Part shown: in pieces, positions 5,204 through 55,548 of the stretch
Layout: the number at the start of each line of letters is the position of its first letter
Position numbering within the stretch: position 1 is the first letter of the stretch
NCBI GenBank assembly: GCA_021108215.1
Contig: JAIORK010000036.1
Location: forward strand, 22,948 to 86,947
From: a bacterium
GTDB lineage: Bacteria; Oederibacteriota; JAAXVQ01; JAUVAV01
Length of the DNA stretch: 64,000 bases
Direction: 5' to 3'
Position numbers and translations under genes: made by a program
Notes under the pieces: generated by a model
What the model was told of the DNA's origin: nothing
Database searches by the model: none
Seen by the model: the letters and a program-made list of their open reading frames with translations, nothing else

Positions 5204-5770
5204 CTGCCCATTGTATTCGCGCCGGCACGATAAAAAAACAACAACAAGGCCAGGCAGGACATATCCCCGGCTTGGCCTTGTTATATTTCCAGTAAATAGG
5301 CCACCCGCAAGCCGGCACGATAAACATCCGCCCAATGGGATTGCTGTTTGGCTTCAGGTTAATGAAAATCCTGCCAACGGATATTCCGGTGTTTCACATA
5401 ATCATCCCAGACGATCCGCTTGTGCTGAAGTCCGGCTGCCTGAAAAAACATTTCCAATGCAGGTATGGTGAGCAGCGTAAGCATACTTAAGGATTTCCCT
5501 TTGGAATCTTTCGCGCTTTCCTGCAGACAATAATCCCGTTTCTGCGTTTGGGAGCATTATAGCACCAACCCAAACTTTTCTCTGCGTCTGTAAAATGATT
5601 TTTTCATCAGTCTTTCGCCGGCATTCTTTTTTCCGTCCCCGCGTTACCTGTATTCGGCATTTCTATAAAAATGCATTAATGGGTTGATTTTTCTTTGAAA
5701 TATGGTAAAACGTCTATTCTCACGATCTTATTTATCCAAGACACATTCTCAATAGCTGGAGGGCACAAAC

Positions 5771-7702
5771 ATGACAGAACCAACTGTAGAAAAACTTGAA
5801 TTCAAAACTGAGGTCAGCCAACTGCTTGATCTTGTGGTCCATTCCCTTTACTCGCACAAGGATATTTTTCTGCGCGAGCTCATTTCCAATGCCTCGGATG
5901 CGATTGACAAACTCCGTTATCAGGCTGTAACCCAGAGTGATCTTACGGGTGATGATGCTGACTGGAAAATAAAAATCAGCCTGGACAAAGAAAACAACAC
6001 ACTCACCCTTTCCGACAACGGCATCGGCATGAATCATGATGATCTGGTCAATAATCTCGGTACCATTGCCAAATCCGGCACCAAAGAGTTTTTGGCCACC
6101 TTACAGCAAAGCAAGGATAATGTTAATCTCATCGGTCAATTCGGCGTAGGCTTTTATGCCTCCTTCATGGTCGCTGACAAGGTCGAGGTGGTTTCCAAGC
6201 CACCCCAGGACCCGGCGCACCGCTGGGTCTCGGACGGCAAACAGGGCTTTGAGATCACGCCGGATGACAAATCCAAGCGCGGCACGGATATTATCCTTCA
6301 TCTCAATGAAGAAAACCGGACCTATCTGGAAGAATATGAAATCCGCTCTCTGGTTAAAAAATACTCTGATTTTGTCGAGTTCCCGATTTTAATGGATGTG
6401 GAACGTGAGGAAACCCCGCAAGATGCCGAGGGCAAACCGATCGAGAATGCCAAACCAGAGAAAAAAATCATCACCGAGACGCTCAACTCTATGAAAGCAA
6501 TCTGGGCCAAACAAAAAAAAGATGTCACCCCGGAAGAATATCATGAATTTTACCGGCATGTTTCCCATGATTTCACCGATCCTCTAGAAACCATTCATTA
6601 TCACGCTGAGGGAACCATTGAATTCAAAGCCCTCATTTATATTCCCAGTCAGGCACCTTTTGATCTTTTTATGCGCGATTCCCAAAAGGGCATCCAATTA
6701 TATATCAACCGGATTTTTATCATGAGTGATGCCAAAAAACTTATTCCAGCATACCTGCGCTTTCTCAGAGGGGTTGTGGATACCAGTGATCTGCCGCTGA
6801 ATGTCTCGCGCGAAATGATTCAGCAGGATGCCCAGTTGGAAAAAATCAGTAAAAATATTGTCAAGAAAACCCTGGCTACACTCAAAACCATGAAGGATAA
6901 GGATTTTGATAAATATCTGAAATTTTACAAAACCTTCGGCACGGCATTAAAAGAAGGCTTGCACTATGATCATGATAACCGGGAAGCCATTGCCGAACTG
7001 CTGCTTTTTGAGAGCACCAAAACCGAGCCGGGTCAGCTGCGTTCCCTTGATCAGTATTGTTCGGATATGCCGTCTGAACAAACCGCCATCTATTATCATA
7101 CTGCCGAGGACCGGGCATTGGCACTCGCTTCGCCCTATCTGGAAACTTTCCAATCCAAAAATTGGGAAGTCCTGCTCATGTTGGAAGCCATTGATGAAAT
7201 TGTTCTGCCTGATCTTTTTGAATACAAGAAAAAACCGGTCAAACCGATCAATCGCGGGGATGTTGATTTAAGCAGCGAAGAAAAAGAAAAAGCCGAGGCA
7301 GCTCAAAAAAAAGCCAATGAAACCTATAAAGATCTACTCGCTTATATACAGAAAAAACTTGAAAATAATATCAAAGAAGTCCGTTTTTCAAAATTACTCA
7401 AAGACAGCCCGGCCTGCCTGGCATTGGATGATGCCGGCATGACCCGCCAAATGCAGGAACTCTTTAAAGCCATGGGCAAAGAGTCGCCTGAACAAAAAAA
7501 CATTCTGGAACTCAATCCCAATCATAAGGTTGTAGAAACCATGAACACGCTTTTCCAGGAAAACCAAGCCTCAGAAAAATTATCCGACTATGTCTCTTTG
7601 ATCTACGATCAGTCGCTGCTTACCGCCGGGTTCAAGGTCAAAGATCCCCTGGCATTTTCAAAAAGGCTGACACAATTGATGGTGGGACCAACCGCTTCCT
7701 AA
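5771..7702 (+). CDS. htpG: molecular chaperone HtpG (Hsp90)
   Basis: Hallmark N-terminal ATPase motif LLDLVVHSLYSHKDIFLRELISNASDAIDKLRY, full-length 643 aa, GGAGGG RBS. Confidence 0.95.
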   Translation: MTEPTVEKLEFKTEVSQLLDLVVHSLYSHKDIFLRELISNASDAIDKLRYQAVTQSDLTGDDADWKIKISLDKENNTLTLSDNGIGMNHDDLVNNLGTIAKSGTKEFLATLQQSKDNVNLIGQFGVGFYASFMVADKVEVVSKPPQDPAHRWVSDGKQGFEITPDDKSKRGTDIILHLNEENRTYLEEYEIRSLVKKYSDFVEFPILMDVEREETPQDAEGKPIENAKPEKKIITETLNSMKAIWAKQKKDVTPEEYHEFYRHVSHDFTDPLETIHYHAEGTIEFKALIYIPSQAPFDLFMRDSQKGIQLYINRIFIMSDAKKLIPAYLRFLRGVVDTSDLPLNVSREMIQQDAQLEKISKNIVKKTLATLKTMKDKDFDKYLKFYKTFGTALKEGLHYDHDNREAIAELLLFESTKTEPGQLRSLDQYCSDMPSEQTAIYYHTAEDRALALASPYLETFQSKNWEVLLMLEAIDEIVLPDLFEYKKKPVKPINRGDVDLSSEEKEKAEAAQKKANETYKDLLAYIQKKLENNIKEVRFSKLLKDSPACLALDDAGMTRQMQELFKAMGKESPEQKNILELNPNHKVVETMNTLFQENQASEKLSDYVSLIYDQSLLTAGFKVKDPLAFSKRLTQLMVGPTAS

Positions 7703-10345: not shown

Positions 10346-10525
10346 GAATCTTGTTCCTCCAAAATTTTCAATACCCATTTTTTGCCTTAGCAAAGAAGGG
10401 GGTTCACCTTACCATTGCGTGGTAAACCTGTCAAATAAATTATCGGTTATTATAAATAAATAATAAAGCGCTTTTTTATTCCCACTGACGCCCTGGTCAA
10501 ATTTACAATCCATTCCTATTTAATG

Positions 10526-10665
10526 CTACTGATTTTAATCGTCCCCTTCACGTTCCCTTGCACAATAACACGCGCCATATAGACACCGGGCACAACATCT
10601 TGGCAGTCCCAGACCAGACTTTGACCCGGACCCTCCGGCAACTCTTCCTGCAGTATTGCCACACG
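10526..10665 (-). pseudogene. orphan 3' fragment of a T9SS/FlgD-Ig-like C-terminal sorting domain
   Basis: 46 codons (RVAILQEELPEGPGQSLVWDCQDVVPGVYMARVIVQGNVKGTIKISSIK*) with no start codon and an in-frame stop upstream. About 90 percent identical over 127 nt (10541-10667) to the 3' end of the 879-aa gene (14292-14418). Confidence 0.7.
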
Positions 10666-10676
10666 CTAACAGAAAT

Positions 10677-14266: not shown

Positions 14267-16906
14267 TTATTTAACAATGCTAACTTTGATAGTCCCCTTC
14301 ACGCTCCCTTGCACAATAACACGCGCCATATAGACACCGGGCGCAACATCTTTGCAGTCCCAGTCCAGGCTTTGGCCCGGACCCTCCGGTAAATTTTCCT
14401 GCAGTACCGCCACGCGCTCACCGATCAAATTATAGAGCATAATCTCAACCTGGGCAGCTTGCTCCAAATGGAGCACAAAGCGCATCTCTGATTTGGCTGG
14501 ATTGGGAAATGCCAACGCCGGCCGGCCGCCCAGGTCGACATTGAGCAAAGGATTGTCCGGTGTCACGGTTGCGGTTGGCGTTACGGTCAAAGTGGGTGAG
14601 ACGGTTTGGGTCAATGTAATAGTTCCGGTCAGGGTAATGGTGGGTGTCACGGTTGCGGTAAAAGTGATGGTCCGGGTAGGTGTCGCGGTTGCGGTCGGCG
14701 GTCCAATCACAACCACATCCGTTGCAAACGAGGATGTATTGTTACTGCTGTCCGTGGCCAAAGCGGAAACCGTCTCTCCGCCAACCAGACCGGACGGCGT
14801 GAGGCTCCAGTTGCCCGAGCCATCGGCCGTGGTCCTGCCGACCAGGGAAATGCTCCCTCCCGGATTTCCGCCCGCTTCAGCCAGGAAAACCTCGATGTAA
14901 TCATTATTCCCCGCGGTTCCGGAAATCAGGGTGCTGGAGGCAGCCGTAATCACAGGCGGTATTTTATCCGTATTGCCGCCCGCGGACAACAGAATCGCAT
15001 CATGGCCTATCGCTGTGATGGTATTGGCAAACAAACCGTTTTGAATTGCATTGGAATTTAAAATACTAATTCCATAATTCATGCCGGTAAAAATATTTCC
15101 CGAACCGGTATGCTGAATACCAAAAAAATTGCCCTGCCCGTTCGAAATACGGACACCGGTACCCATGGTCAATCCAGTGGCCGTGCCGTCTGGCATGCAA
15201 TTAAGCCAGTTCTGGCATATGGTATTGTTGTCCGCTCCGTCATACAGTTCAAATCCGTAGTTTAAACAGTAAATATAGTTGCGGTCTTCAGGCAGCAGTC
15301 CGCCAATCACGTTATCGATCGCGACGCGAAGCTGGAAACCGTTAAAATTCTCGATTACGCTGCTACGGTCAAGACTCAACCCGATATCATTTCCCAGTAT
15401 ATAATTGCCAACCGCAAGTTCCAGAAAAACCGCATTCAAACTATTGCCGGAAATGATATTGCGGTAGATGGGATCCGGACCGCCGATATAATTGTTGGTG
15501 GCATTCGCGTAATATAAGCGGAGGCCGTGATAATTGGGAATCGCGGCATTTCCGGCCAGATTAAGGCCGATAATGTTTCCGATCACAGTATTTCCCTGGC
15601 AGTCGTAAATGAGCACACCCGCGTTTCCCGTACCACTGCTGCCTGAAATCAAATTGCCCCGCATCTGGCCGGCTGACAAATTGGGTCCGCCGACCAGATT
15701 ATTATCACCGGTTATCCATACCCCGCACTGGTCGCTGATGGCTGCCGCGTCACCGGCCCAGTTGGTGCCGATCAAATTGCCGCTTACCGTATTGCCCGAT
15801 CCTTGCAGCCGGATATTGTATTGGCTGCCGGATATCAGATTGCGTTCCTTATATGCTGCATTCAAATGACCGCCGATCGCGAAAGAAAACCCATACAGAT
15901 CAAGACCGTAACTGGAATTATTGGTAATCTGGTTGTTCTGGATAATATAATGATGCGAGGTTGTGGCAGTGTTATAAATGCCGCGGTCATTGGCCGCAAT
16001 GGTATTGCCATAACCGTCTACAGGCAAACCGATCCAGTTGTTATTGGAATAATTGCCGATACCAATCCCGGCAAAGGAGTGGCCCAAAGGTGTGGCCATA
16101 TCACTGCCCAGACCGATCACATTGCCGCAGACACTGTTGCCCGAGGTTGCCGCATAGGTGAAACGCAGACCCGAGTTGCTGTTGCCGGATATCAGGTTGC
16201 CCTCATTGGCATACCAGCTCCCACCGATCATATTATTTTCACATTGATCACCAAACTCCACGCCAACTAAATTAGGCCGGGCCAAAAGCCCGGAGCTGTC
16301 GGTCCCAATATAATTATTCTGGATTTTCATACTGCTGCAGTGACCAACATATATGCCATAATGGGTATTACTGGATATAATGTTGCGGTCACTGATATTG
16401 GGTGTGCCGATCACTGCATTCGTACTGCCCAAAATGTAAAGACCGTCGCGATTTGGCCGGCTTACATCTGTCCAGTCAAGACCGATCCTGCATCCGGTAA
16501 TTGAAATATTGTCGGCATTAACGGAGCGGATTGCCTGATACGCATCCACCAACGCTACATTTCTGAATTGCGTATTATCACTGGTTATGGCAATCAAAAA
16601 CATATACGTATTACTCTCCTGCGCCGGATAGTACCCGATCACCACGTCATTACTCTCCCCATCAATAATTAATTCATTATTAATCCATATTGCGCTGAAA
16701 ACCGTGATGGAATTGGAATTGCCGCTGGCGCCCGGCCCAAAGGTAATGGTATCACCTGCCGTGGCATCCAGAACCGCCTGGCGCAACGTCCCCGCACCGC
16801 TGTCCTCGCGGCTGGTGACTTGAATGGTAGCAGCTTGCGCAAGTGTCGCCATACCGCATAAAATAATAACTGCAATATACCTGACCCCTAAATATCTTTT
16901 CACCAT
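14267..16906 (-). CDS. secreted right-handed beta-helix (PbH1/CASH-type) repeat protein with Thr-rich linker and T9SS/FlgD-Ig-like C-terminal sorting domain
   Basis: Signal peptide (MATLAQA/AT). Many N-x-I-x-G-N / I-S-G-N repeat turns. TATATPTRTITFTATVTPTITLTGTITLTQTVSPTLTVTPTATVTP linker. C-terminal FPNPAKSEMRF...GVYMARV...VK. Confidence 0.75.
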   Translation of the reverse strand: MVKRYLGVRYIAVIILCGMATLAQAATIQVTSREDSGAGTLRQAVLDATAGDTITFGPGASGNSNSITVFSAIWINNELIIDGESNDVVIGYYPAQESNTYMFLIAITSDNTQFRNVALVDAYQAIRSVNADNISITGCRIGLDWTDVSRPNRDGLYILGSTNAVIGTPNISDRNIISSNTHYGIYVGHCSSMKIQNNYIGTDSSGLLARPNLVGVEFGDQCENNMIGGSWYANEGNLISGNSNSGLRFTYAATSGNSVCGNVIGLGSDMATPLGHSFAGIGIGNYSNNNWIGLPVDGYGNTIAANDRGIYNTATTSHHYIIQNNQITNNSSYGLDLYGFSFAIGGHLNAAYKERNLISGSQYNIRLQGSGNTVSGNLIGTNWAGDAAAISDQCGVWITGDNNLVGGPNLSAGQMRGNLISGSSGTGNAGVLIYDCQGNTVIGNIIGLNLAGNAAIPNYHGLRLYYANATNNYIGGPDPIYRNIISGNSLNAVFLELAVGNYILGNDIGLSLDRSSVIENFNGFQLRVAIDNVIGGLLPEDRNYIYCLNYGFELYDGADNNTICQNWLNCMPDGTATGLTMGTGVRISNGQGNFFGIQHTGSGNIFTGMNYGISILNSNAIQNGLFANTITAIGHDAILLSAGGNTDKIPPVITAASSTLISGTAGNNDYIEVFLAEAGGNPGGSISLVGRTTADGSGNWSLTPSGLVGGETVSALATDSSNNTSSFATDVVVIGPPTATATPTRTITFTATVTPTITLTGTITLTQTVSPTLTVTPTATVTPDNPLLNVDLGGRPALAFPNPAKSEMRFVLHLEQAAQVEIMLYNLIGERVAVLQENLPEGPGQSLDWDCKDVAPGVYMARVIVQGSVKGTIKVSIVK

Positions 16907-17151
16907 GTCAAACCCCCATCTTCGTGATATTGCCTTCCCAATAAAGTAATAACACAGGTTTTTAAAACAAACTATAAAAACAAGGAAAAAGTCACAAAAT
17001 CAAATCAGGTGACGGACCATTACGGTTCCAGCGCTTGTGCAGCCAGGCGTTTCATCTGCTTGACAATTGCGGCCAGACCATTGGCCCGGGAGAGAGAGGT
17101 TGGTGCTTAATCCAATTTGTCTATAAAGATGAAAAAAAGGCAAAATGCCAT

Positions 17152-17180
17152 TTGACATATCTCCAAATAAAGCTTATGTT
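17152..17180 (+). promoter_or_regulatory. sigma70-type promoter of csp
   Basis: TTGACA-N17-TATGTT, about 65 nt upstream of the csp ATG. Confidence 0.5.
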
Positions 17181-17246
17181 TCTTATAGATTTCAGCCGGA
17201 TAGGGTTGGGATCAGTTAGGTTCATTTTATAGGAGGAACGTATTTC

Positions 17247-17450
17247 ATGGTACAAGGTAAAGTAAAGTGGTTTAATGATGCAAAAGGATTCGGTTTCTTG
17301 GAGCGCGAAGGCGGCAGTGATGTATTTGTTCATTTCTCAGCTCTCAAAGGCGACGGATTCAAAAGTTTGGCTGAAGGTGAAGCAGTAGAATTTGATGTCG
17401 TTGACGGTCCCAAAGGCCCTCAGGCATCCAATGTTTCCAAACTTGGCTAA
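17247..17450 (+). CDS. cold-shock protein, CspA family
   Basis: [21 protein letters not shown]...VFVHFS motifs, AGGAGG RBS. Confidence 0.93.
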
Positions 17451-17492
17451 GCAACCCATCCGACAACTCGTTGTATAGGTTTTAATTAAAAA

Positions 17493-17522
17493 CCCCCGTA
17501 CCTTTTGGTGCGGGGGTTTTTA
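17493..17522 (+). terminator. rho-independent terminator of csp
   Basis: CCCCCGTACC-TTTT-GGTGCGGGGG followed by TTTTT. Confidence 0.8.
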
Positions 17523-17597
17523 ATTTGGGGTAGCGCTACCCTACTGCTCCCCATTAACAAAAGAAGAGTAGTATAAAAGCTCTTTATTTTCCTACTA

Positions 17598-18320
17598 CTA
17601 ATAGCACTCATAGTACGGTGGCTTTTTGGGTGTTGGATATATTTTAGCCGAATAGTGTATGTTTTTTATCTTGTCACGAAATTTGTTTTGCAAAATAATA
17701 TTATTTCTAATTGCTGAAATATACTTATCCAGCGCTATTACTAAATCAACCTTTAAGGCATTAATTGATATCGGCAACCAATATCCAGCATAGTTATTCA
17801 AATGCGTTATTTCTCCGGCAGAATGAACTTGCACTATTTGGAAGTGTTTAACATCAAGCCTTTTTTCAAATATTATTTTGCCATCATTATCTGCTATTTG
17901 GAAATTGTGGCTGTAACTATTTCGTTCACCGTCTTCATCAGAAAATACCAACCACTTTAATATCGCTTTTTTACTTTCGAGATCTATTAATAGATTTTGT
18001 GGATGAAATCTATGACACAATCCATGTCGATACATGTAATAAAACCATTTAACTTCCTGGTCTTTGTAAATACTTGTGTCAAAATAATTACGAATAAATC
18101 CTAACTCAACATCCTCACCATCTTTCCCGAAGGGTCTTTGACCATGAAGATATTCACTCAATTCCAGCACATAACTAAAAAACATCAATGGAATAGTAAA
18201 CTCTCCTATCCCTGCTTTTAGAAGAGCACCCATTTCTAAGAGGATCGAGTTTTTATAATCTTTATCCAAATATTCGATTATCTGGTCACTGCTAACATTT
18301 TTAAATAATTTCCAAGACAT
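17598..18320 (-). CDS. hypothetical protein (orphan, AT-rich island)
   Basis: 240-aa ORF with a GGAG-type RBS, 32 nt downstream of the 777-aa gene. No recognisable motif. Confidence 0.65.
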   Translation of the reverse strand: MSWKLFKNVSSDQIIEYLDKDYKNSILLEMGALLKAGIGEFTIPLMFFSYVLELSEYLHGQRPFGKDGEDVELGFIRNYFDTSIYKDQEVKWFYYMYRHGLCHRFHPQNLLIDLESKKAILKWLVFSDEDGERNSYSHNFQIADNDGKIIFEKRLDVKHFQIVQVHSAGEITHLNNYAGYWLPISINALKVDLVIALDKYISAIRNNIILQNKFRDKIKNIHYSAKIYPTPKKPPYYECY

Positions 18321-18352
18321 ACCTCATCTCCATTTTAGACCACTTATTGATT

Positions 18353-20686
18353 TTATTTAATCGGATGTTTAGAAAGAATTTGTCGTGCTAATTCTTCTCC
18401 GTCATTTGGGCCTGGAAATCCACCTCTTTCCCGTAATCGTTCTTCAAGTTGTTTTTGTCTAAGTAAAATATGTTTTTGTACATTTTTCCATTGTTCTTCT
18501 GTGAAAACCTTCGGTTTTGTTTTAATTTCTTCGTCAACCTTGTTTGCCATATGTGTATTGTTTTTTGCACGCATTACTAATTGAATAGCATAAAAATGTG
18601 CATATATATCACCAATTGCGTAATCATCAGGATTTTTAGAAATTTCGCAATATGATTCCAGGATTGAGCGTATATTTGAAATACATAAGAGTAATACATC
18701 TTGCCACCACTCTCGGGTATAAAATAAAAGGCCTATGTACACCATAGAATCACATGCAATATCAGTCCATTCTTTAAATATGCTCTTCTTTCTATCAAAA
18801 GCAACCCAGTAAAATGACAAAATCCACGTGAATTTATCAACTAATTCTTTCACATCATTTTGGTTAGATCGTAGTGGATTATCTAATATCTGACACACAA
18901 CTTTAGCAATATGCTTAATTAGCTCATTAATCTCCCAAATAAGAAAACTATCTCCAAACTCATTTTTTTCTGCAACATTGCGCAAGTGCCGTGCAATGAT
19001 GTCTGTCATGTCTATTAATTCGTAATATGGATTTGTCGCATCTCGTTCAGGATCTACTTTCGGAAATATAGTTGCAGCCATAGCGAATAAATTCCCGAGT
19101 GAAGTTTGTTCGACAAGACTATATGCCTTTGTAAACGGATGATTCATTGATAGTCTTCCTTGAAGAGTTTCACTAATTATTGCAAAGGGCGCTAAATTTC
19201 CAAGTTTTTGAAAAACTTGGCCAAGTACTTCTTTGAAGTAATAATCTTTATTCCGAAGCATATGGTCAAGGATGATAAAATACTGTTTAATAACTTCTTC
19301 TGCTAATACAGGATTGCGGTTAATATAGAAGTACTGAGCAATTTCTGATATTCCATTTATAACTGGCAAGTGAATGTCTGAGTCATCAACATCCTTCGGA
19401 GTACATTTAATAATTCCAGAAAGCATGCCGCTCGTCTGAAACGGCACCTCATCAAGCCCTTTTGTTTGGGCAATCCTCACGCATGACAACATGTAGTTAA
19501 TTGGTTTCATAGACAATGGTGCAGTGTTCGGCCGGTATTTTCTTGCTCCTAAATTTGCTGTGTGGATAGTAATTTTCTTGTATGCTTCAGAAACACTTAA
19601 AGCTGCGGATTCATCATTTTGTGATATAGCAATACGGCTAATTTCATTTAACATTTCATAGGAACAGCCTGTAACTGCTTCTACATCAGATTGGGAAGTT
19701 AACAGCAATGTATCTGGGCAGGGCAAAATTAGTAAATTTAGCTTTCTTGCAGATAAATAATACATAGTCAAATGAGCAATCGCATACACAGCCGATTTCG
19801 TTAATAGTTTCTCATTTCGAGAAATAGCTTTTACTGCGATCTCAGATAAATCATTAATCCAACTATTGATAGTTTGGGGATAGCCGAACACTTGAGGATA
19901 ATAAATCGTTTCTATATCCTCAATTACCACTCCCTGCTTTTTTTCTTCCGGGAGTAATTTATAATGAAGTCTTGCTGATCGATTAACTGTCTTTTTTATA
20001 CGATCAATTGTTCTCATTGCTTGCTTGAGAGCAAGATTTGTTGAATAAGTTGGATCTAACAGCTTGCATATATGACGATGATACAAGCGTAGCAGATCAA
20101 GACTAAATCCCAGAGTTAATATAGCAACAGCTAATTTCAAGTTTTCTGAAACTCCAGCGAATCCACCCGCAGAAAAAGCAAAGCACGCTATACACAATAT
20201 CGCAAGAGCTACAAACGATGCATTTGTAATTAAGTCTCTCCGATAAAGACGGACAATTGAAGATGACCAAGCTTCTGCTGCACGTTGTATTGGTATAATT
20301 GATAGGGTTAATACAAGTGCCAGAATTGTTCCGTACGTGGCACCAAGTTGAATGAGCATTTTATCTATTGATTGCGTTGTGTTTAATGCTGTTCGCAAAG
20401 GCGGATAACCCAGAATAAATGATGCTATTATAAGGCCAATAATACCTATCATAATCTTGCTTGTTTTCAAAAGCAACCCACGACTAAACGAAGTAATATA
20501 AAACCATAAACGAACAACTTTTATTGTCAAATACGTTTTTATTCGCGTTATTATAGTTTTCAATCCATCACGTAGCGACATAATCATTCGTTTGAAATAT
20601 TTCACTAGTTTTGGCCACCATAGTATTACGTTTGTTGACCATAAATTGCGAATTTTAAAGTATGATTTGTTTTTATTTTGGTTCAT
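18353..20686 (-). CDS. hypothetical membrane protein (4-5 N-terminal TM helices plus ~550-aa helical cytoplasmic region)
   Basis: 777-aa uninterrupted ORF in AT-rich DNA with an AGAGGA RBS. TM segments at aa ~78-215. The segment LTLSIIPIQRAAEAWSSSIVRLYRRD is reminiscent of DUF2254-type membrane proteins (from memory, unverified). Confidence 0.7.
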   Translation of the reverse strand: MNQNKNKSYFKIRNLWSTNVILWWPKLVKYFKRMIMSLRDGLKTIITRIKTYLTIKVVRLWFYITSFSRGLLLKTSKIMIGIIGLIIASFILGYPPLRTALNTTQSIDKMLIQLGATYGTILALVLTLSIIPIQRAAEAWSSSIVRLYRRDLITNASFVALAILCIACFAFSAGGFAGVSENLKLAVAILTLGFSLDLLRLYHRHICKLLDPTYSTNLALKQAMRTIDRIKKTVNRSARLHYKLLPEEKKQGVVIEDIETIYYPQVFGYPQTINSWINDLSEIAVKAISRNEKLLTKSAVYAIAHLTMYYLSARKLNLLILPCPDTLLLTSQSDVEAVTGCSYEMLNEISRIAISQNDESAALSVSEAYKKITIHTANLGARKYRPNTAPLSMKPINYMLSCVRIAQTKGLDEVPFQTSGMLSGIIKCTPKDVDDSDIHLPVINGISEIAQYFYINRNPVLAEEVIKQYFIILDHMLRNKDYYFKEVLGQVFQKLGNLAPFAIISETLQGRLSMNHPFTKAYSLVEQTSLGNLFAMAATIFPKVDPERDATNPYYELIDMTDIIARHLRNVAEKNEFGDSFLIWEINELIKHIAKVVCQILDNPLRSNQNDVKELVDKFTWILSFYWVAFDRKKSIFKEWTDIACDSMVYIGLLFYTREWWQDVLLLCISNIRSILESYCEISKNPDDYAIGDIYAHFYAIQLVMRAKNNTHMANKVDEEIKTKPKVFTEEQWKNVQKHILLRQKQLEERLRERGGFPGPNDGEELARQILSKHPIK

Positions 20687-20788
20687 ATAATCCTCTGAAT
20701 CTATTTTCCTGTCAGCGAAATATAGGGCATTATCGTCAACTTTTAGCGGAATAGCAATTCAAAATATATTACACCGTAAATAGCACCG

Positions 20789-21157
20789 TTATTTTATACA
20801 TGACTGTTTCTTTATGGCTTTTACTACCAAATCACTGATTTCTTGCATTATCTCTGGATCGTATTGGATAAAATCAAGTCTACCGCTGCTTTTATCTTGG
20901 TTTTCTTTTACTACTTCTCGATCCATACGTTCAGTTATGATTTGGAAGACCTTTATATCACCCCGTGCCGCTTGTTTGATCATGGCGCCTGCAACCTTTT
21001 CCTGGCTGATACTGCCAGTCTCAAACTGTTCCTTGATAACAACATTCCAGTGACTGACTCCACACTTGGCACCGCAGGGATTTCCGCTTTGTCCCTTTCT
21101 TCTAATTAATTCTTTATAAACAAAAAAGAGCCTCCCTTTCGGGAGGCTCTTAAAGAT
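20789..21157 (-). pseudogene. phage-type DUF5681-like gene, apparently lacking a start codon
   Basis: The open frame encodes ...RRKGQSGNPCGAKCG... (K-G-Q-S-G-N-P-x-G signature) but has no ATG/GTG/TTG before Met at 20983. Its 5' part runs through the XRE-gene terminator. Confidence 0.4.
21127..21150 (-). terminator. rho-independent terminator of the XRE gene
   Basis: AGAGCCTCCC-GAAA-GGGAGGCTCT followed by TTTTTTG on the minus strand. Confidence 0.75.
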
Positions 21158-21359
21158 TCATTAGGTCCTTTAATTTAATCCCCAGCCCATGAGCTATCTT
21201 AGCTAGAGTGGTGAATTGCGGGTCCACAAGACCTTTTTCGATCTTACTTAGGTTGCCTTTGGACATGCCGTTTTCATAAGCTAGGTGTTCCAGGGTAATC
21301 CCCTTCTCCTTCCTTAGCTTATGTATCCTCATGCCCAGTTTTTCGGTTAATTGGCTCAT
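21150..21359 (-). CDS. XRE-family HTH transcriptional regulator
   Basis: 69-aa Cro/CI-type HTH (LRKEKGITLEHLAYENGMSKGNLSKIEKG). Confidence 0.85.
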   Translation of the reverse strand: MSQLTEKLGMRIHKLRKEKGITLEHLAYENGMSKGNLSKIEKGLVDPQFTTLAKIAHGLGIKLKDLMNL

Positions 21360-21395
21360 AATGGAGTTGATTTTACAATATTTTAGGTTTATAGT

Positions 21396-21413
21396 AGTTT
21401 CTTATAAGAAACT
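21396..21413. promoter_or_regulatory. 18-bp perfect palindrome, probable XRE operator
   Basis: AGTTTCTTATAAGAAACT in the divergent intergenic region between the XRE gene and the small plus-strand ORF. Confidence 0.5.
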
Positions 21414-21427
21414 TTTGGAGGTTAAAT

Positions 21428-21616
21428 ATGCAAATCTTAAAATCTACAATTCCTTATGTCATTGAATTTTCACCGGATGACATCAATTATTTACATTTGG
21501 CCTGTCATTATTATAAAGATTTACTGAAAAATAATAAGGACATGAAAAAAATCAAACGACGGGATAGACTTAAGCATCTAAACCAAATGATAACGCTCAT
21601 TGATTTGATGATGTGA
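21428..21616 (+). CDS. small hypothetical protein divergent from the XRE regulator
   Basis: 62-aa ORF with GGAGG 6 nt upstream of the ATG. No known motif. Confidence 0.45.
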   Translation: MQILKSTIPYVIEFSPDDINYLHLACHYYKDLLKNNKDMKKIKRRDRLKHLNQMITLIDLMM

Positions 21617-21647
21617 GGATTATCAAAAAAATATTTTTATATTTGTT

Positions 21648-22214
21648 CTATTTACTCTGCATTGCTAATAGCTCCGCCTTTTTTCCCTCCATCGGGGCTG
21701 AAATATGTATTCGTGATTTTTCTTTTTTACGCTTCTGGCCTCCCTGGTTTAATTTCGAGAGGTTTTCAGATATAAATCTATCAATATTCTCTTTAGCTTC
21801 CACATGAAAGCGAGCCACTCCGTTTTTAATATCCACATCTTTACCAGCCATGTGTATCAATTGATCAAGATACATTTTTACTTTAAATGCATGATATTTA
21901 ATCAAATCAACAATTTTTACCGAAGGCTGGCGAAAACCAATTTCCAAGTGAAGCCCAAGGACGCTTGCATAATTCAATAGATCACCAACAGCGATATCTT
22001 TGTCATAAGAGGATTCGATTTTGGATATTTTCCCCTGGGAACAACCAACTTTTTTCGCCAGTTTGGTCTGCGTGAGTTGGTGTTTGCAACGCAACATGAG
22101 CAGGAATTTGGAAATCATCCGGTTTTCGATTTCATACGCTACGCTTTTCTTGAATTCCTCATCCGTTGAAAGCCCTTCCATCATTTTCATAACATTTTCA
22201 TATTTTTTCGCCAT
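21648..22214 (-). CDS. HTH (XRE-type) antitoxin, HigA-like, with C-terminal extension
   Basis: HTH motif LTQTKLAKKVGCSQGKISKIESS. It shares one nucleotide with the upstream toxin gene (both ORF boundaries fall at 22214). Confidence 0.7.
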   Translation of the reverse strand: MAKKYENVMKMMEGLSTDEEFKKSVAYEIENRMISKFLLMLRCKHQLTQTKLAKKVGCSQGKISKIESSYDKDIAVGDLLNYASVLGLHLEIGFRQPSVKIVDLIKYHAFKVKMYLDQLIHMAGKDVDIKNGVARFHVEAKENIDRFISENLSKLNQGGQKRKKEKSRIHISAPMEGKKAELLAMQSK

Positions 22215-22585
22215 TATTGTCCCCCCTGTTTCATACCCTTTACCTTTTTCTTGTATTCCTCAATATCCCTACTCTGGGACCTCTTATCCCCTATTCCTAA
22301 AAGCACAACCCTCTTTTCCTTTACGTCGGAATAGATATAAAGCCGTGTTTCCTGGAGCTTCTTTCTTATTCCTCCACATCTTTGGTCAATCGCTTTGATG
22401 CCCATGGGTTCCGGATAGACAAACCCCACCTGGACCAACGAAGGCGACCCACACTCACACAAAGTCCTAAAATACGTGTCCAGGTTGTTCAAAACGCACT
22501 TTAATTCATCTTTGTGCTTTTTTTGATAGTGCTTGTGGTCCCTCTCGAAGGATTGCGTCGGTTGGAGATGCCATGGTTCCATCAT
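22214..22585 (-). CDS. RelE/ParE-superfamily toxin (HigB-like, toxin-first order)
   Basis: 123 aa. C-terminal RLYIYSDVKEKRVVLLGIGDKRSQSRDI is typical of RelE/HigB-type toxins. Confidence 0.6.
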   Translation of the reverse strand: MMEPWHLQPTQSFERDHKHYQKKHKDELKCVLNNLDTYFRTLCECGSPSLVQVGFVYPEPMGIKAIDQRCGGIRKKLQETRLYIYSDVKEKRVVLLGIGDKRSQSRDIEEYKKKVKGMKQGGQ

Positions 22586-22614
22586 CGGCTCAATCCGTAG
22601 GTATTGGTATAATT

Positions 22615-22656
22615 ATTCCATATTGGAATATTATCTCTTTTGGTTATATTTGTCAA
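22615..22656 (-). promoter_or_regulatory. promoter plus operator palindrome of the HigBA-like operon
   Basis: Minus strand TTGACA-N17-TAATAT. The -10 overlaps the palindrome ATTCCA-TAT-TGGAAT (22615-22629). Confidence 0.55.
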
Positions 22657-23034
22657 CGCTTCCATAAAACGTTTCCCTCGAATAAGTATCTTGCGTACCC
22701 TTTATTCGTTAGACAATTTTTTCGAGAGTTTCATGCATTTATTACTATTTTTTTTATTCTTTTTACGGATTGATATTGAGGTTGTATTAAGGACTCCTAC
22801 AAGGAATATCATGGTTTTTGGATAAGATGGCTGAAATGAGATAAGGGAAATTGGCTGCTGTGCTCACAGAGTTCTCTTCGCATGAGATTCCCCGTTTGGT
22901 ATCTAAGAAAAACAGAAAAAACCAATCTTCACTACTCGGGAATCGGTTACTACGGTCGCAACATCATGTTGCTCCCTGCGTAACCCCGCCTCGACAGCTA
23001 GCCAAAGACATCTCGTTTTTCATCCCAAAAAACT

Positions 23035-23403
23035 CTATTTTCCTGCTTCCTTTTTATCCAAACCCCTCACCAGTCCGTTGATCATTTTGCAAATTTCATT
23101 AAGATTTTCGTTCAAGTCTAGACAGTTATCTGAATTTATTAATTGTTTGCGTTTACATACTTCAATAATCGGTATACATTCCTGAGCAGATCCTCTAGCA
23201 ATCCAAAAGAACTGTTTGCGTTCTTTTGGATGCCATCTACCGTTTCCTTCTGCCAAATTAGCCGATATGGATAGCGCTGCCCGATTGAGCTGATCAATAA
23301 GGTAATAGTTGCCTTTCGGAAATGTGTCGGTAAGTTTAGATGTCTTTTCTGCAACATCGACCGCTTTTTGGTAAACTTCCAATTTCTCAAACATGAAAGA
23401 CAT
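23035..23403 (-). CDS. four-helix-bundle protein (23S rRNA intervening-sequence protein family)
   Basis: FEKLEVYQKAVD...LIDQLNRAALSISANLAEGNGR...FFWIARGSAQEC signature. Confidence 0.85.
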   Translation of the reverse strand: MSFMFEKLEVYQKAVDVAEKTSKLTDTFPKGNYYLIDQLNRAALSISANLAEGNGRWHPKERKQFFWIARGSAQECIPIIEVCKRKQLINSDNCLDLNENLNEICKMINGLVRGLDKKEAGK

Positions 23404-23556
23404 AGTTCAAACCTCCTATTTGGGTCCTTTATGGTATTAGACTGAAAATAGGAAGATTTCATGCTGGGAAAATGAAAAAAATACAAAAAAAATTGTGAAC
23501 AGCAGATCAGCTGAGCAGCAGACCGCCCTGAATCACATGTGATTCAGGACTCCACC

Positions 23557-23603
23557 AGAAATAGAAAACCCTGCACCTTATTGGTGCAGGATTTTCTATT
23601 TCT
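23557..23603 (-). terminator. long hairpin terminator immediately 3' of tRNA-Glu
   Basis: AGAAATAGAAAA(C)CCTGCACC-TTATT-GGTGCAGG(A)TTTTCTATTTCT, a 20-bp interrupted stem. Confidence 0.65.
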
Positions 23604-23677
23604 GGTAGCGCTACGGGGAATCGAACCCCGGCTTGATGACTGAGAATCATCCGTCCTAGCCGCTAGACGATAGCGCC
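23603..23677 (-). tRNA. tRNA-Glu (anticodon CUC), CCA encoded
   Basis: GGCGCTA TC GTCT AGCGGCTA GGAC G GATGA TTCTCAG TCATC AAGC CGGGG TTCGATT CCCCG TAGCGCT A CCA. Cloverleaf with the 4-nt variable loop typical of tRNA-Glu. Confidence 0.9.
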
Positions 23678-23860
23678 ATGAGCGAAGCGAATAGCTCTGC
23701 TGTTCTGCTGCTCTGATTTCAATAAATATGTACAAGCCAATTCCAACAACTTAAAAATATGATCAGCGGACCAGCCGATAGCAGACCGCTGGTTCGCTTT
23801 TTCCTGCTGTTCTGCTGCTCTGATGCTCACCTGCTCTGCAATTTCGCTTTTTCGAAATTG

Positions 23861-23916
23861 CGAACCCCGGCTTGATGACTGAGAATCATCCGTCCTAGCC
23901 GCTAGACGATAGCGCC
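23861..23916 (-). pseudogene. 3'-truncated tRNA-Glu copy (nt 1-56)
   Basis: Identical to the intact gene up to GGTTCG of the T-loop. The 3' T-stem, acceptor strand and CCA are replaced by the CAATTTCG hairpin. Confidence 0.85.
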
Positions 23917-24099
23917 ATGAGCGAAGCGAATAGCTCTGCTGTTCTGCTGCTCTGATTTCAATAAATATGTACAAGCCAATTCCAACAACTTAAAAATATG
24001 ATCAGCGGACCAGCCGATAGCAGACCGCTGGTTCGCTTTTTCCTGCTGTTCTGCTGCTCTGATGCTCACCTGCTCTGCAATTTCGCTTTTTCGAAATTG

Positions 24100-24133
24100 C
24101 GAACCCCGGCTTGATGACTGAGAATCATCCGTC
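24100..24133 (-). pseudogene. internal tRNA-Glu fragment (anticodon arm to T-loop)
   Basis: GACGGATGATTCTCAGTCATCAAGCCGGGGTTCG only. The upstream side is replaced by the hairpin GTCTTGC-TGC-GCAAGAC. Confidence 0.8.
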
Positions 24134-24156
24134 GTCTTGCGCAGCAAGACAGCTCT

Positions 24157-24252
24157 GCTGTTCTGCTGTTCTGCTGTTCTGCTGTTCTGCTGTTCTGCTG
24201 TTCTGCTGTTCCGCTGTTCTGATGCTCTGCTGTTCTGATGTTCTGCTGCTCT
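24157..24252. repeat. octanucleotide microsatellite (GCTGTTCT)x12
   Basis: Twelve head-to-tail 8-mers: eight exact copies and four variants with 1-2 mismatches (GCTGTTCC, GATGCTCT, GATGTTCT, GCTGCTCT). Confidence 0.9.
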
Positions 24253-24277
24253 GCCACTCTTTCTCACTACGAAAGAG

Positions 24278-24353
24278 TGGCTGCCGATCCTGGGCTCGAA
24301 CCAGGGACCCCCTGCTCCAGAGGCAGGTGCTCTACCAATTGAGCTAATCGGCA
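24278..24353 (-). tRNA. tRNA-Gln (anticodon CUG), CCA encoded
   Basis: TGCCGAT TA GCTC AATTGGTA GAGC A CCTGC CTCTGGA GCAGG GGGTC CCTGG TTCGAGC CCAGG ATCGGCA G CCA. U1-A72 and G73 are typical of bacterial tRNA-Gln. Confidence 0.9.
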
Positions 24354-24449: not shown

Positions 24450-25919
24450 TTAAATATCGATCCCCGCCGTTTTCAAACCTATTTCCAAACGGCTGATCGT
24501 TTTTTCCTTACCCAAAATTTCCATCACTTCAAAAATACCGGGTGATTGCATACGTCCCGTCAGGCTAACCCGCAAAGGATGCGCTAAAATCCCGAATTTC
24601 ACCTGCTTTTCTTCAATAAAACCCTTGAGGGATTCTTCCAATCCTGAAACGGAAAAGGATTCTACCATTTTCAATTTTTCGTGTAAAGCCTTAAATAAAA
24701 CCTGATTTTCCTTCATACTCGCTAATTTTTCCCGCGCTTTTTCATCTATTTTTTCCAAATCCGGCTCCTGAAAAAAATAATCCACCTGACCGGGCAGCTC
24801 CGTAAGCAGTTTAAATTTTTCCCGCACCAATTTGACGCAGGCTGTGGCATAGGTTGTATCGTCTTTATCAGATAAAACCCCGGTATTTCGTAAAACACTC
24901 AGCGCACGTTTAATGTAAACAGCTTCATCAATACTGCGCATATACTGCCCGTTCATCCAGGTCAATTTATCCGGATCAAAGACCGCAGGATTTTTACTGA
25001 CTTTTTTCAAAGAAAATTTTTCTTCCAGTGCTTGTTTGGAAAATAGTGTGGTTTTGTCATCAAATGCCCAGCCCAAGAGCGCTAAATAATTAATCATGGT
25101 TTCCGGCAGGTAACCCTCTTTGGCATACGCACCAATTGAAGTGGCGCCGTGCCGTTTGGACAACCGCGTCTTATCCGGACCCAGAATCATGGGAACATGC
25201 GCAAATTTCGGAAGCGGTTCATTGAGCGCCTTGTACACCGCAATCTGACGGGGTGTATTGGAAAGATGATCGTCACCGCGGATCACATGCGTAATTTTCA
25301 TGGTCACATCATCCACTACAACAGCAAAATTATAGGTCGGCAGACCATTGGTCCTAAACAGGACAAAATCATCCAGTACTTTATTTTCAAAAACAACTTT
25401 TTCCCGAACAGCATCCCCGATAATCGTCTCGCCCTCGGTCGGCATTTTCATGCGAATGGTATGCGGTTCTCCGGCAGCAACACGGGCTTTGGCCTCTGTT
25501 GACGGGATGTGACGACAAGCTCCGTTGTATTTGGGATCTTCATTTTTTTCCAATGCTTGCTTGCGCATACTGTCCAGGCTTTCTGCTGAACAAAAACAAT
25601 AATAGGCATCTCCCGAGTCAAGCAGCTGATTCACTTTCTCCCGATAGATATCCAACCGCTCTGTCTGACGGTAGGGTCCAAAATCACCGCCCACACCCGG
25701 CCCTTCATCCCAATTGAGGCCGAGCCATTTCATATCTTCAAGGATCATCTGCACAGATTCCTCGGTGCTGCGCTCAACATCGGTATCTTCCAGGCGAAGC
25801 ACAAAGGTCCCCCCCTGACGGCGTGCATAGAGATAATTAAAGAGTGCGGTGCGTGCGCCGCCAATATGCAGATGACCGGTCGGCGAGGGTGCAAAGCGGA
25901 CGCGAATGGTTCCAGACAT
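24450..25919 (-). CDS. gltX: glutamate--tRNA ligase
   Basis: HIGH motif PSPTGHLHIGGART and KMSKS-type LSKRHG. Start set at the second ATG (25919), which is preceded by GGAGG; the first ATG lies in a 9-bp hairpin. Confidence 0.93.
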   Translation of the reverse strand: MSGTIRVRFAPSPTGHLHIGGARTALFNYLYARRQGGTFVLRLEDTDVERSTEESVQMILEDMKWLGLNWDEGPGVGGDFGPYRQTERLDIYREKVNQLLDSGDAYYCFCSAESLDSMRKQALEKNEDPKYNGACRHIPSTEAKARVAAGEPHTIRMKMPTEGETIIGDAVREKVVFENKVLDDFVLFRTNGLPTYNFAVVVDDVTMKITHVIRGDDHLSNTPRQIAVYKALNEPLPKFAHVPMILGPDKTRLSKRHGATSIGAYAKEGYLPETMINYLALLGWAFDDKTTLFSKQALEEKFSLKKVSKNPAVFDPDKLTWMNGQYMRSIDEAVYIKRALSVLRNTGVLSDKDDTTYATACVKLVREKFKLLTELPGQVDYFFQEPDLEKIDEKAREKLASMKENQVLFKALHEKLKMVESFSVSGLEESLKGFIEEKQVKFGILAHPLRVSLTGRMQSPGIFEVMEILGKEKTISRLEIGLKTAGIDI

Positions 25920-26048
25920 AGTACCTCCAGGCATTTTTGTGCAACAAAAATGCAGAGCATTTGAGAGAAGAAAACAGAAAACAGTTCAACACACTCAAAT
26001 GTGGTCTATTCTCAACTTTCTATTGCTCTGCGTACGTTTTATAATAAC

Positions 26049-55418: not shown

Positions 55419-55438
55419 TGTATTCACCTCCCTTACTT

Positions 55439-55467: not shown

Positions 55468-55548
55468 TTTGTCAAGCATTCATGCCTATCATCGCTATAG
55501 CGCCGGCACGAAGGACGAAAATGCAAGTCGGCTATATGCATATCTGTC

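Follow-up and report, generated by a model that had tools for sequence, protein, structure and literature searches.

A decayed and probably layered variable region between tRNA-Glu and a cold-shock protein gene

Relation to described regions

Williams is said to have classified, in 2002, tRNA-linked islands and their tyrosine integrases, with the 3' end of the tRNA gene reportedly a known sublocation for the integrases that target it, and Oliveira, Touchon and Rocha reportedly described, in 2017, integrase-free chromosomal hotspots of gene flux between conserved core genes. The segment studied here, at 17.5-23.6 kb of a 64,000-nucleotide stretch of DNA (the window), has traits of both. Like tRNA-linked islands, it lies on the 3' side of a tRNA gene, shows at its far border a direct repeat with the tRNA 3' end and carries accessory, compositionally odd cargo with XRE and toxin-antitoxin genes that is absent in relatives; unlike them, it holds no integrase or fragment of one, its repeat lies mostly downstream of the tRNA in a terminator and shows only 77% identity, relatives conserve the DNA next to the tRNA, and the same repeat architecture is also present without cargo. 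With the integrase-free hotspots it shares conserved flanks (tRNA-Glu and its neighbouring gene on one side, csp on the other), lineage-variable content and a lack of self-mobility genes, but the slot is bracketed by a duplicated tRNA end plus terminator hairpin and adjoins a tRNA module that duplicates and inverts.

The gene nearest the tRNA (23035-23403, minus strand; IVP below) belongs to the four-helix-bundle/23S rRNA intervening-sequence protein family and scores well above the family cut-offs (PF05635, E 2e-29; TIGR02436, E 1e-27), yet, unlike the genes that give the family its name, it lies outside any rRNA gene. Avd proteins of diversity-generating retroelements are distantly related to this family; in contrast to Avd systems, no reverse transcriptase or template/variable repeat occurs near the IVP gene, which reaches 17 bits with an Avd-specific model whose cut-off is 80. 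The gene is observed to be stably linked to tRNA-Glu in the FCPU426-like clade.

The direct repeat and its hairpins

On the minus strand, tRNA-Glu(CTC) occupies 23603-23677 (Rfam tRNA, 58.5 bits). Within the window its 3' end, GGTAGCGCTAC, has exact copies only at 23604-23614 and 17529-17539, and this 11-nt pair, to which the initial annotation had drawn attention, is real; with up to one mismatch there are four strand-matches against 0.22 expected, a number that none of 100 shuffles reached. The 11 nt form the perfect core of a longer imperfect direct repeat, 17484-17539 versus 23559-23614, with 44 of 57 columns identical in local alignment. Its score of 29 is the top non-self match in the window (next best, 16-19) and stands against a background, over all 135-nt windows on both strands, of mean 8.8, s.d. 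3.0 and 99th percentile 14.6, so that the similarity of about 40 nt to the left of both copies, also noted at first, is borne out. The longest unbroken identity between the copies is 12 nt.

Neither copy has an assigned strand. Copy 1, at 23559-23614, comprises the putative bidirectional terminator of tRNA-Glu and the tRNA 3' end, whereas copy 2, at 17484-17539, comprises the putative csp terminator hairpin followed by an 11-12-nt copy of the tRNA-Glu 3' end. The terminator-like hairpins proposed for both are recovered: each copy folds, on either strand, as a long hairpin (-32 to -47 kcal/mol, z-scores -5 to -13), with arms at 23554-23577 and 23583-23606 in copy 1 and at 17484-17502 and 17507-17525 in copy 2, and each is predicted from its folding to be a strong bidirectional terminator. 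In the hairpin adjoining tRNA-Glu, the ACCA end of the tRNA pairs with TGGT. The 14-nt perfect palindrome GGGTAGCGCTACCC is likewise present, at 17528-17541 (no strand), and marks where the AT-rich cargo begins on its left side.

Copy 1 is less similar to its own paralogue, copy 2 (77%), than to the orthologous tRNA-Glu terminators of the related lineages L034, L004, L031 and L035 (81-88% of aligned columns). The 12-nt tRNA remnant beside csp is nevertheless perfect, against about 72% identity in the neighbouring hairpin, and zero changes in 12 nt under neutral drift from one old duplication would be unlikely (about 0.02, a rough estimate). Such a perfect stretch beside a diverged hairpin fits gene conversion, selection acting on the palindrome, or a later crossover within the core of the tRNA.

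The locus also duplicates parts of itself on the other side of the tRNA. A 239-nt tandem unit (23622-24133, minus strand; two copies plus 34 nt), one unit shorter in L001, carries in each copy the first 55 nt of tRNA-Glu; these 5' fragments are located beyond the tRNA, on its far side, and do not count as att remnants of an island. The window and L035 acquired their partial tRNA-Glu duplicates independently of each other, and the breakpoints differ between them.

Gene content and composition of the slot

The left anchor is csp, a cold-shock protein gene convergent with tRNA-Glu (17247-17450, plus strand; Pfam CSD, E 3e-29). The two genes that follow are both on the minus strand and low in GC3. 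Orf240 (17598-18320; GC3 0.30) is a near-orphan that matches nothing in Pfam, PADLOC, PHROG or NCBIfam and has homologues in only six representatives at E<=1e-3 among 1.84 billion proteins, one of them 85% identical and on a 2.4-kb Logan contig. Orf777 (18353-20686; GC3 0.27) encodes a DUF2254-like membrane protein, with a weak DUF2254 match, and its homologues fall into about 100 clusters (32-56% identity), none of them close; in L036/L037 its homologue stands alone amid housekeeping genes, without an orf240 partner or mobile-element genes. Next comes orf64 (20789-20983, minus strand), which the initial annotation had called a DUF5681 remnant; it is a DUF5681-like fragment with a weak match (E 5e-4, 21 bits, below the gathering score of 27.5) and no phage match.

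A 69-aa XRE-family HTH regulator (21150-21359, minus strand; HTH_19 and HTH_3 matches) goes with a strong terminator at 21126-21151 in a terminator scan, and orf62 (21428-21616, plus strand), divergent from it, matches no family. The HigBA-like pair comprises HTH188 (21648-22214, minus strand), an antitoxin-like HTH protein (HTH_3, E 2e-7; HipB/Y4mF-type matches below cut-off), and orf123 (22214-22585, minus strand), which overlaps it by 1 nt and may be a RelE/ParE-type toxin (TIGR02683, E 1e-3, below cut-off; phrog_3445 'toxin', E 6e-3). Between orf123 and the IVP gene lies a 449-nt non-coding gap (22586-23034, no strand), with no domain in a six-frame scan and no similarity to relatives; it contains the right edge of the lineage-specific cargo, although that edge is not defined. 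Searches of every ORF, and six-frame scans of the two largest gaps, gave no integrase, as had been stated at the outset, and no other recombinase domain. The description of the region as immobilised and decayed agrees with the lack of any integrase, excisionase or transposase: with an identity run of at most 12 nt between the repeats, no part of the segment is still mobile.

The composition of the segment is a mosaic. In 200-nt windows GC falls abruptly at the left repeat, from 0.44-0.47 at 17300-17599 to 0.31-0.33 at 17600-18099, and the step falls exactly at the 12-nt tRNA remnant next to csp. Toward the tRNA, GC is 0.47-0.49 at 22300-22599, 0.30-0.46 at 22600-22999 and 0.34-0.41 over the IVP gene, and in these windows no step at the tRNA-Glu end matches the left one, so that the coincidence of compositional switch and repeats holds at one end only. 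GC3 is 0.40 in HTH188, 0.56 and thus backbone-like in orf123, and 0.37 in IVP, against 0.44-0.60 in the backbone; values as low as those of orf240 and orf777 recur in the window only in other accessory toxin-antitoxin/defence blocks. The other AT-rich toxin-antitoxin and defence blocks of the window sit away from tRNAs.

Related lineages and the history of the slot

With gltX (24450-25934, minus strand) as right anchor, we found relatives in the same candidate phylum, FCPU426-like, few and distant (gltX 59-69% identical). Their order is gltX, tRNA-Gln (CTG in the window, by tRNA call and Rfam tRNA, at 24278-24353, minus strand), tRNA-Glu, terminator, spacer and IVP gene. Two of them, L022 and L035, reach a convergent csp in the same position, which in L022 shares 81% DNA identity, 5'UTR included, with that of the window. 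The terminator, a second hairpin (CCTGAATCACATGTGATTCAGG, 23527-23548, with compensatory changes in L034), the spacer and IVP occupy the same place by tRNA-Glu in four lineages (L022, L031, L034 and L035). The spacer and IVP upstream region (23404-23553, minus strand) aligns with L034, L035, L022 and L031, and the flank past the tRNA-Glu terminator, from TGGTGGAGYCCTGAAYC onward, is alignable across lineages, with nucleotide identity up to about 80% (L034). IVP orthologues, truncated in L022 and L034, are 71-77% identical in amino acids and thus more conserved than gltX. In contrast, orf240, orf777, the XRE gene and the HigBA-like pair are absent from every relative with these flanks. The terminator and IVP are therefore old residents, and only about 17541-23034 is lineage-specific cargo.

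Beyond IVP, each of five lineages has content of its own in the slot rather than a shortened version of the same content. L022 (gltX 68%) has tRNA-Glu, hairpin, spacer, an IVP cut short at 46 aa, unique sequence of about 550 nt, a further hairpin and csp; L035 (59%) runs from tRNA-Glu through a hairpin, IVP, part of a second IVP, the unrelated orf252 and another hairpin to csp; L034 (64%) has tRNA-Glu, both hairpins, an IVP truncated at 97 aa and an IS200-like ORF start; and in L031 (69%) IVP stands beside an inverted tRNA-Glu, hence on its 5' side, followed by an LVIVD-repeat gene. These differences weigh against an ancestral cargo deleted in relatives, its AT-richness a gene-specific bias as of a weakly selected membrane protein. 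Truncated IVP genes and non-coding junk indicate that deletion is active in the relatives' slots, and the orf777 family occurs amid ordinary chromosomal genes in another genome, but the GC3 of orf240 and orf777 is far outside the range of other genes, the former is a near-orphan and the closest homologue of the latter is only 56% identical; we consider a history free of horizontal acquisition very improbable.

The same comparison bears on the initial annotation's account of a single integration, in which 17540-23603, IVP included, would have entered the tRNA-Glu 3' end, with the 11-nt core as att crossover and the integrase lost later. The repeat does run from the T-stem/acceptor-stem junction through CCA, its perfect core stands beside a diverged arm, GC steps sharply at the left copy, and XRE, toxin-antitoxin-like and DUF5681-like genes are kinds common on mobile elements. 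Nevertheless, the tRNA-proximal 570 nt are in place in four cargo-free lineages, so that the 6 kb are not one unit acquired from the tRNA end, although the account is supported in so far as the region is variable and partly foreign-looking and its cargo is absent in relatives. Equivalent terminator repeats also occur without this cargo: in L022 the csp terminator matches that lineage's own tRNA-Glu terminator at 41 of 46 positions, a strong repeat that does not extend into the tRNA, and in L035 the pair is weak, with a score of 20 (top non-self; next best, 15). The repeat is therefore either older than the window cargo or independent of it, and is not its footprint. In no relative did we find the csp terminator directly next to tRNA-Glu, as in a true empty site, and same-species contigs, all 100% identical to the window, held neither an excision junction nor an empty-site variant. 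With its mosaic composition and lack of an integrase remnant also counting against it, single integration, already weakened by synteny, appears improbable.

A less improbable, though still doubtful, alternative is that these loci descend, in decayed form, from an ancient element directed at the tRNA-Glu 3' end and terminator, with IVP as its conserved att-proximal gene and with distal cargo exchanged again and again, perhaps through new integrations at a retained distal att near csp. It would account for a repeat that brackets spacer, IVP and variable DNA in all three genomes reaching csp, for the conservation of IVP and its flank above gltX, for the wide distribution of IVP-family genes, many of whose matches lie on very short contigs, and for cargo that begins exactly at the distal tRNA remnant. 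Conversely, no integrase gene was found in the slots seen end to end (window, L022 and L035) or in the partial L031 and L034 loci, nor a third att copy between IVP and cargo with up to three mismatches; the L022 repeat lacks the tRNA part, and in L031 the tRNA is inverted.

We think it somewhat probable that the segment is a layered, decayed variable region in a long-standing tRNA-Glu/csp slot. Layer 1, next to the tRNA, would comprise the CCA-pairing bidirectional terminator, the second small hairpin, the spacer and the IVP gene; it is common to several related lineages and therefore old. Layer 2, from about 17541 to 22585-23034, would comprise orf240, orf777, the DUF5681-like scrap, XRE with orf62 and the HigBA-like pair; it is restricted to this lineage and, in part, AT-rich and of foreign composition. 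The 57-nt repeat would be an old duplicate of the tRNA-Glu 3' end plus terminator, now serving csp; it could be a distal att scar left by an ancient element that integrated at the 3'-end sublocation and brought IVP, or a by-product of the partial segmental duplications that the locus makes. Whichever origin holds, the arrival of the present cargo did not create it.

Several observations sit less easily with layering: the perfect 12-nt remnant beside a diverged hairpin, the composition step exactly there, the undefined right edge of layer 2 and the weak similarity of the L035 terminator pair. Relatives so few and distant do not formally separate gain in the window from loss in relatives, and conservation of IVP above gltX also fits horizontal spread of a tRNA-Glu/IVP module. 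An intact, integrase-bearing relative of the cargo at another site, whose attP consisted of GTAGCGCTACC plus a terminator-like arm, with IVP at its end, would contradict the layered reading. The segment is an ordinary island remnant, now immobile, whose second layer would have been captured later, between IVP and the csp terminator, where each relative differs.

Layout and direct repeat of the tRNA-Glu locus

Read from right to left, the locus runs from gltX, its right anchor (24450-25934, minus strand), through tRNA-Gln(CTG) (24278-24353, minus), an array in which the 8-nt unit TCTGCTGT is repeated about 13 times, placed between tRNA-Gln and tRNA-Glu (24154-24257), and a 239-nt tandem repeat with 5' parts of tRNA-Glu (23622-24133, minus) to the intact tRNA-Glu(CTC) (23603-23677, minus), with whose ACCA end a long palindromic terminator pairs (23554-23606). 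A second hairpin (23527-23548) lies in the spacer before IVP, a four-helix-bundle gene of the 23S rRNA-IVP family (23035-23403, minus). After a gap of 449 nt follow orf123, a possible toxin gene (22214-22585, minus) that overlaps the gene of the HTH protein HTH188 (21648-22214, minus), then orf62 (21428-21616, plus), an XRE regulator with its own terminator (21150-21359, minus), orf64 (20789-20983, minus), orf777 (18353-20686, minus), orf240 (17598-18320, minus), the palindrome GGGTAGCGCTACCC (17528-17541), a terminator hairpin (17484-17525) and the convergent cold-shock gene csp (17247-17450, plus).

The initial annotation took the 6 kb from 17488 to 23614 for an island integrated at the 3' end of tRNA-Glu between att repeats, its integrase since lost. 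The repeat itself is confirmed. An 11-mer of the tRNA-Glu 3' end occurs at exactly two sites in the window, and allowing one mismatch gives 4 strand-matches against 0.22 expected, a number reached by no shuffle. The flanks to the left of both 11-mers align imperfectly, as had been proposed: 17484-17539 and 23559-23614 share 44 of 57 columns around a 12-nt perfect core, with a score of 29 against a background, over all other windows on both strands, of mean 8.8 and sd 3.0 (next best non-self scores 16-19). Shuffles and alignment score together rule out a chance 11-mer. Both copies form strong bidirectional hairpins (-32 to -47 kcal/mol), and a genome-wide family of REP-like hairpins was rejected as the origin of their likeness, a third copy being absent from the 64-kb window and from 15.6 kb of the related contig L022. 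Between IVP and the AT-rich lineage-specific genes (the cargo, about 17541-23034) there is no third att copy at up to three mismatches, and no terminal inverted or direct repeats bound the AT-rich block alone, with no common 10-12-mers beyond the known pair.

The proposed switch of composition at the repeats holds at one end. At the csp-side copy GC steps sharply, and exactly there, from about 0.45 to about 0.32, but the tRNA-Glu end of the segment has no corresponding step, and GC3 within it is a mosaic (orf240 0.30, orf777 0.27, HTH188 0.40, orf123 0.56 and IVP 0.37, against 0.44-0.60 in the backbone). The segment abuts tRNA-Glu at 23603, as an island of a tyrosine integrase at a tRNA 3' end does, and under an integrase model the attP would contain GTAGCGCTACC. 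That no integrase is present is borne out: no ORF carries a recombinase domain in searches of Pfam, PHROGs, NCBIfam and PADLOC, nor do the neighbouring genes, and six-frame scans of the gaps at 20660-21170 and 22560-23060 revealed no integrase or transposase pseudogene.

The 12-nt tRNA remnant at csp is perfect, the hairpin beside it has diverged by 28%, and the cargo starts exactly at the remnant. With a single event followed by neutral drift, zero changes in the 12 nt would be unlikely (about 0.02 by our own estimate); the perfect remnant beside a diverged hairpin, together with the cargo start at that point, thus keeps alive both a later crossover at a pseudo-att site and selection on the palindrome. 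One same-species contig, L003 (911 nt, coverage 1.8x), carries two substitutions at the junction, at the equivalents of window 17510 and 17541, one within the hairpin loop and the other changing GGTAGCGCTACCC to GGTAGCGCTACCA; given the coverage, these may be sequencing errors.

The locus in related lineages

By its gltX matches, the window belongs to an uncultured lineage that carries the annotation candidate division FCPU426 or Firestonebacteria; outside its own species, the closest GltX proteins are 59-69% identical. Within the species, contigs with an identical Csp (five read, three places shown) or an identical GltX (eight read, two shown) were searched, and among those listed none had an empty site. 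All assembled contigs carrying the identical Csp have the filled junction, and the same-species contigs (L001, L002, L003, L020 and L021), at 99.7-100% identity with the window, show either this junction or a break inside the tRNA repeat zone. Scanning GTDB genomes with gltX yielded just one same-clade relative, a 5.5-kb contig, and a metagenome scan with a 41-nt tRNA-Glu 3' pattern gave a single match, in an unrelated organism with an NRPS gene beside the tRNA.

The searches recovered five related lineages in which tRNA-Glu lies downstream of gltX and tRNA-Gln. In L022 (gltX 68%) the order is tRNA-Glu, hairpin, spacer, an IVP cut short after codon 46, unique non-coding DNA of about 550 nt, another hairpin and convergent csp; in L035 (gltX 59%) it is tRNA-Glu, hairpin, IVP, a partial second IVP, the unrelated GC-rich orf252, hairpin and csp. 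L034 (gltX 64%) has tRNA-Glu, hairpin, a second hairpin as in the window and an IVP cut at about 97 aa, after which an ORF start, MRQVKKPEHSAYQIHYHFVTPVKYRK (10346-10447), weakly matches the N-terminus of an IS200-like Y1 transposase (E 0.025 over 34 aa) before the contig ends. L031 (gltX 69%) has an inverted tRNA-Glu module adjoining IVP, then an LVIVD-repeat gene; L004 (gltX 64%) stops 225 nt past tRNA-Glu, with the terminator frame CCAGAAATA...TATTTCTGG as in the window. Two further contigs, L025 and L033, have tRNA-Gln only. None of these loci contains orf240, orf777, the XRE regulator or the HigBA-like pair formed by orf123 and HTH188, and orf252 of L035 proved unrelated to orf240 on comparison.

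About 570 nt abutting tRNA-Glu are conserved among these relatives. The second hairpin is kept with compensatory changes between the window (23527-23548, CCTGAATCACATGTGATTCAGG) and L034 (9850-9871, CCTGAACCAAGTGTGGTTCAGG), whose GltX proteins are only 64% identical, and IVP, at 71-77% identity across relatives, is more conserved than GltX, which may reflect either constraint or horizontal spread of the module. The terminator, second hairpin, spacer and IVP stand at the equivalent position in lineages free of the cargo and so do not belong to any recent acquisition; the four-helix-bundle gene had been counted as island cargo and has to be removed from it. The variable slot appears to run from the IVP 3' end, or from a point within it, to the csp terminator. 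As to an empty site, L022 and L035 lack the cargo between shared flanks, but in no relative (the nearest having 59-69% gltX identity) does tRNA-Glu directly abut the csp terminator.

A terminator pair also flanks the cargo-free slots of L022 and L035, on uneven evidence, which argues against the repeat as an att footprint of cargo integration. Within L022 the csp and tRNA-Glu terminators are strongly alike (41/46, score 37), and the repeat stops short of the tRNA, whose core is absent from it. Within L035 the likeness is weak (score 20), although it is the top non-self match, exactly at csp (next best 15), and the stem differences appear compensatory. The tRNA-side terminator of the window matches its orthologues in L034, L004, L031 and L035 in 81-88% of aligned columns and its csp-side paralogue in 77%, and the csp-side GC core, CCCCCGCACC, resembles the core of L034, CCCCGCACC. 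Because the tRNA-side copy is nearer to its orthologues than to its own paralogue and the csp-side core is like that of L034, the duplication looks old. That the two terminators of one genome always resemble each other more than they do those of other genomes is true for L022 only and fails for the window and L035. As judged from these comparisons, we regard the repeat as a probable property of the locus, not a scar from the arrival of the present cargo.

The csp gene and its 5'UTR are 81% identical in DNA between L022 and the window; the 5'UTR is conserved, and together with the gene (17094-17521) it scores 50 bits against the Rfam cspA thermoregulator, under that model's gathering score of 78.

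Content of the variable slot

In the cargo, orf240 is a near-orphan, with only six representatives at E<=1e-3 among 1.84 billion proteins; one of these, P0345, is 85% identical and lies on a 2,442-nt Logan contig. orf777 is one of a sparse family of DUF2254-like membrane proteins, with homologues 32-56% identical and none of them in viral contigs; a family member in another genome is solitary amid housekeeping genes, and in this one homologue context no orf777-orf240 pairing was seen. XRE and HTH188 are generic HTH proteins, the latter with a significant HTH_3 match. The toxin-first order and 1-nt overlap of orf123 and HTH188 fit a HigBA-like type II toxin-antitoxin pair, in which the RelE/ParE matches of orf123 are sub-threshold (TIGR02683 E 1e-3, 19 bits vs a cut-off of 63; phrog toxin E 6e-3). 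The reported DUF5681 remnant is present as a signal in the orf64 region, but below cut-off, and a tblastn search of 50,697 phage records with this frame found no match. The cargo DNA has no match in plasmids. A prophage remnant was also considered and rejected, there being no likeness to phage genomes and no phage structural, replication or lysis genes; the PHROG matches are generic HTH regulators only. The IVP-family assignment is well above curated cut-offs (PF05635 102 bits vs 33.8; TIGR02436 96 bits vs 24), and a search of the literature for any connection of IVP genes with tRNAs gave nothing useful.

Further AT-rich accessory blocks (GC3 0.30-0.40) lie at 54853-60110 and 48195-49901, none adjoining a tRNA. 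They hold MazF with MazE, an HTH protein of 1280 aa with an AbiEii toxin after it, and an HTH-SocA/Panacea antitoxin accompanied by two small ORFs that lack annotation. Entry of AT-rich accessory modules into this genome is therefore not limited to tRNA sites.

Duplication at tRNA-Glu and the history of the locus

The tRNA-Glu module is itself repetitive. At 23622-24133 a 239-nt unit occurs twice at 100% identity, followed by 34 nt more; each unit comprises a 184-nt spacer and the 5'-most 55 nt of tRNA-Glu, which break off in the T-loop and run into a hairpin, CAATTTCG..CGAAATTG, similar to the terminators of tRNA-Gln in L022 and L004. L001, identical apart from this, has one unit where the window has two, so copy number is variable or assembly-collapsed. 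Directly after the hairpin GTCTTGCTGCGCAAGAC lies a defunct piece of tRNA-Glu, 34 nt long (about nt 22-55; 24100-24133); in L022 (12037-12130) the orthologous hairpin is followed by an intact tRNA-Glu. What occupies the ancestral position of tRNA-Glu in the window thus seems to be a relic, and the working gene a downstream duplicate. AGGACGG microhomology could lie behind the 5' deletion of the fragment. An inverted copy of the 8-nt repeat, GAACAGCAGATCAGCTGAGCAGCAGA (23497-23522), sits on the opposite side of the tRNA-Glu module from the array; L004, L022, L031 and L035 have their own variants of such short repeats near tRNAs, and nearly all short-read assemblies break there. The closest relative by gltX identity (69%), L031, has tRNA-Glu together with its terminator (3808-3882) inverted relative to gltX and tRNA-Gln, with the position and strand of IVP unchanged, which fits inversion via flanking inverted short repeats. 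Upstream of its intact tRNA-Glu, L035 has a 21-nt 5' fragment of that gene joined to a hairpin (5073-5093); it also has a (CT)n run upstream of IVP (5530-5565) and the partial second IVP directly after the first (about 6040-6270). Elsewhere in the window, a 134-nt repeat (89.6% identity) links the 3' end of a beta-helix/T9SS-tail gene (10534-10667) with the DNA just downstream of metE (14285-14418), and may be what is left of a second C-terminal sorting domain.

We infer the following order of events as the most likely. An ancient duplicate of the tRNA-Glu 3' end and terminator would today terminate csp. It could have arisen as the distal att of an ancient IVP-carrying element using the tRNA 3'-end sublocation, or by partial segmental duplication of the kind the locus produces, for which the tRNA-Glu 5' fragments with differing breakpoints in the window (55 nt, 34 nt) and L035 (21 nt), the partial second IVP of L035 and the inverted tRNA module of L031 speak. 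The AT-rich genes would have been captured later, in the slot between IVP and the csp-side terminator. The segment would at present be fixed, with mobility genes absent and a longest perfect repeat identity of 12 nt, which falls short of what RecA needs to loop out DNA efficiently, the minimal efficient processing segment in E. coli being about 25 nt.

A bolder reading, which we think very improbable, is that tRNA-Glu, its long terminator hairpin and IVP form a recombinogenic cassette in which recombination acts on the hairpin terminator rather than on the tRNA and foreign DNA is caught between hairpin copies. Hairpin copies would be duplicated or homogenised within genomes, as the near-identical L022 pair might suggest, and the tRNA module would duplicate and invert. 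If true, IVP-family genes, known in 23S rRNA helix insertions, would take part in hairpin-directed DNA rearrangement or be tightly associated with it.

Overall, the initial observation stands, its interpretation is partly supported, and what lies at this tRNA is a variable region, layered and decayed, of a familiar kind, with its boundary and history corrected. This correction is the main value of the analysis: a tRNA-end repeat and a GC step mimic a textbook integrated island, while comparison with relatives shows the locus to have long had both the repeat and the tRNA-proximal genes, with lineage-specific cargo confined to the distal 5 kb. Automated island callers would take the tRNA as the boundary and count the four-helix-bundle gene among the cargo. 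Otherwise the region is ordinary decayed accessory DNA; the persistent linkage of IVP-family genes to tRNA-Glu and the rearrangement-prone tRNA-Glu module may be of interest for genome plasticity in uncultured phyla and for the unexplained biology of IVP genes.
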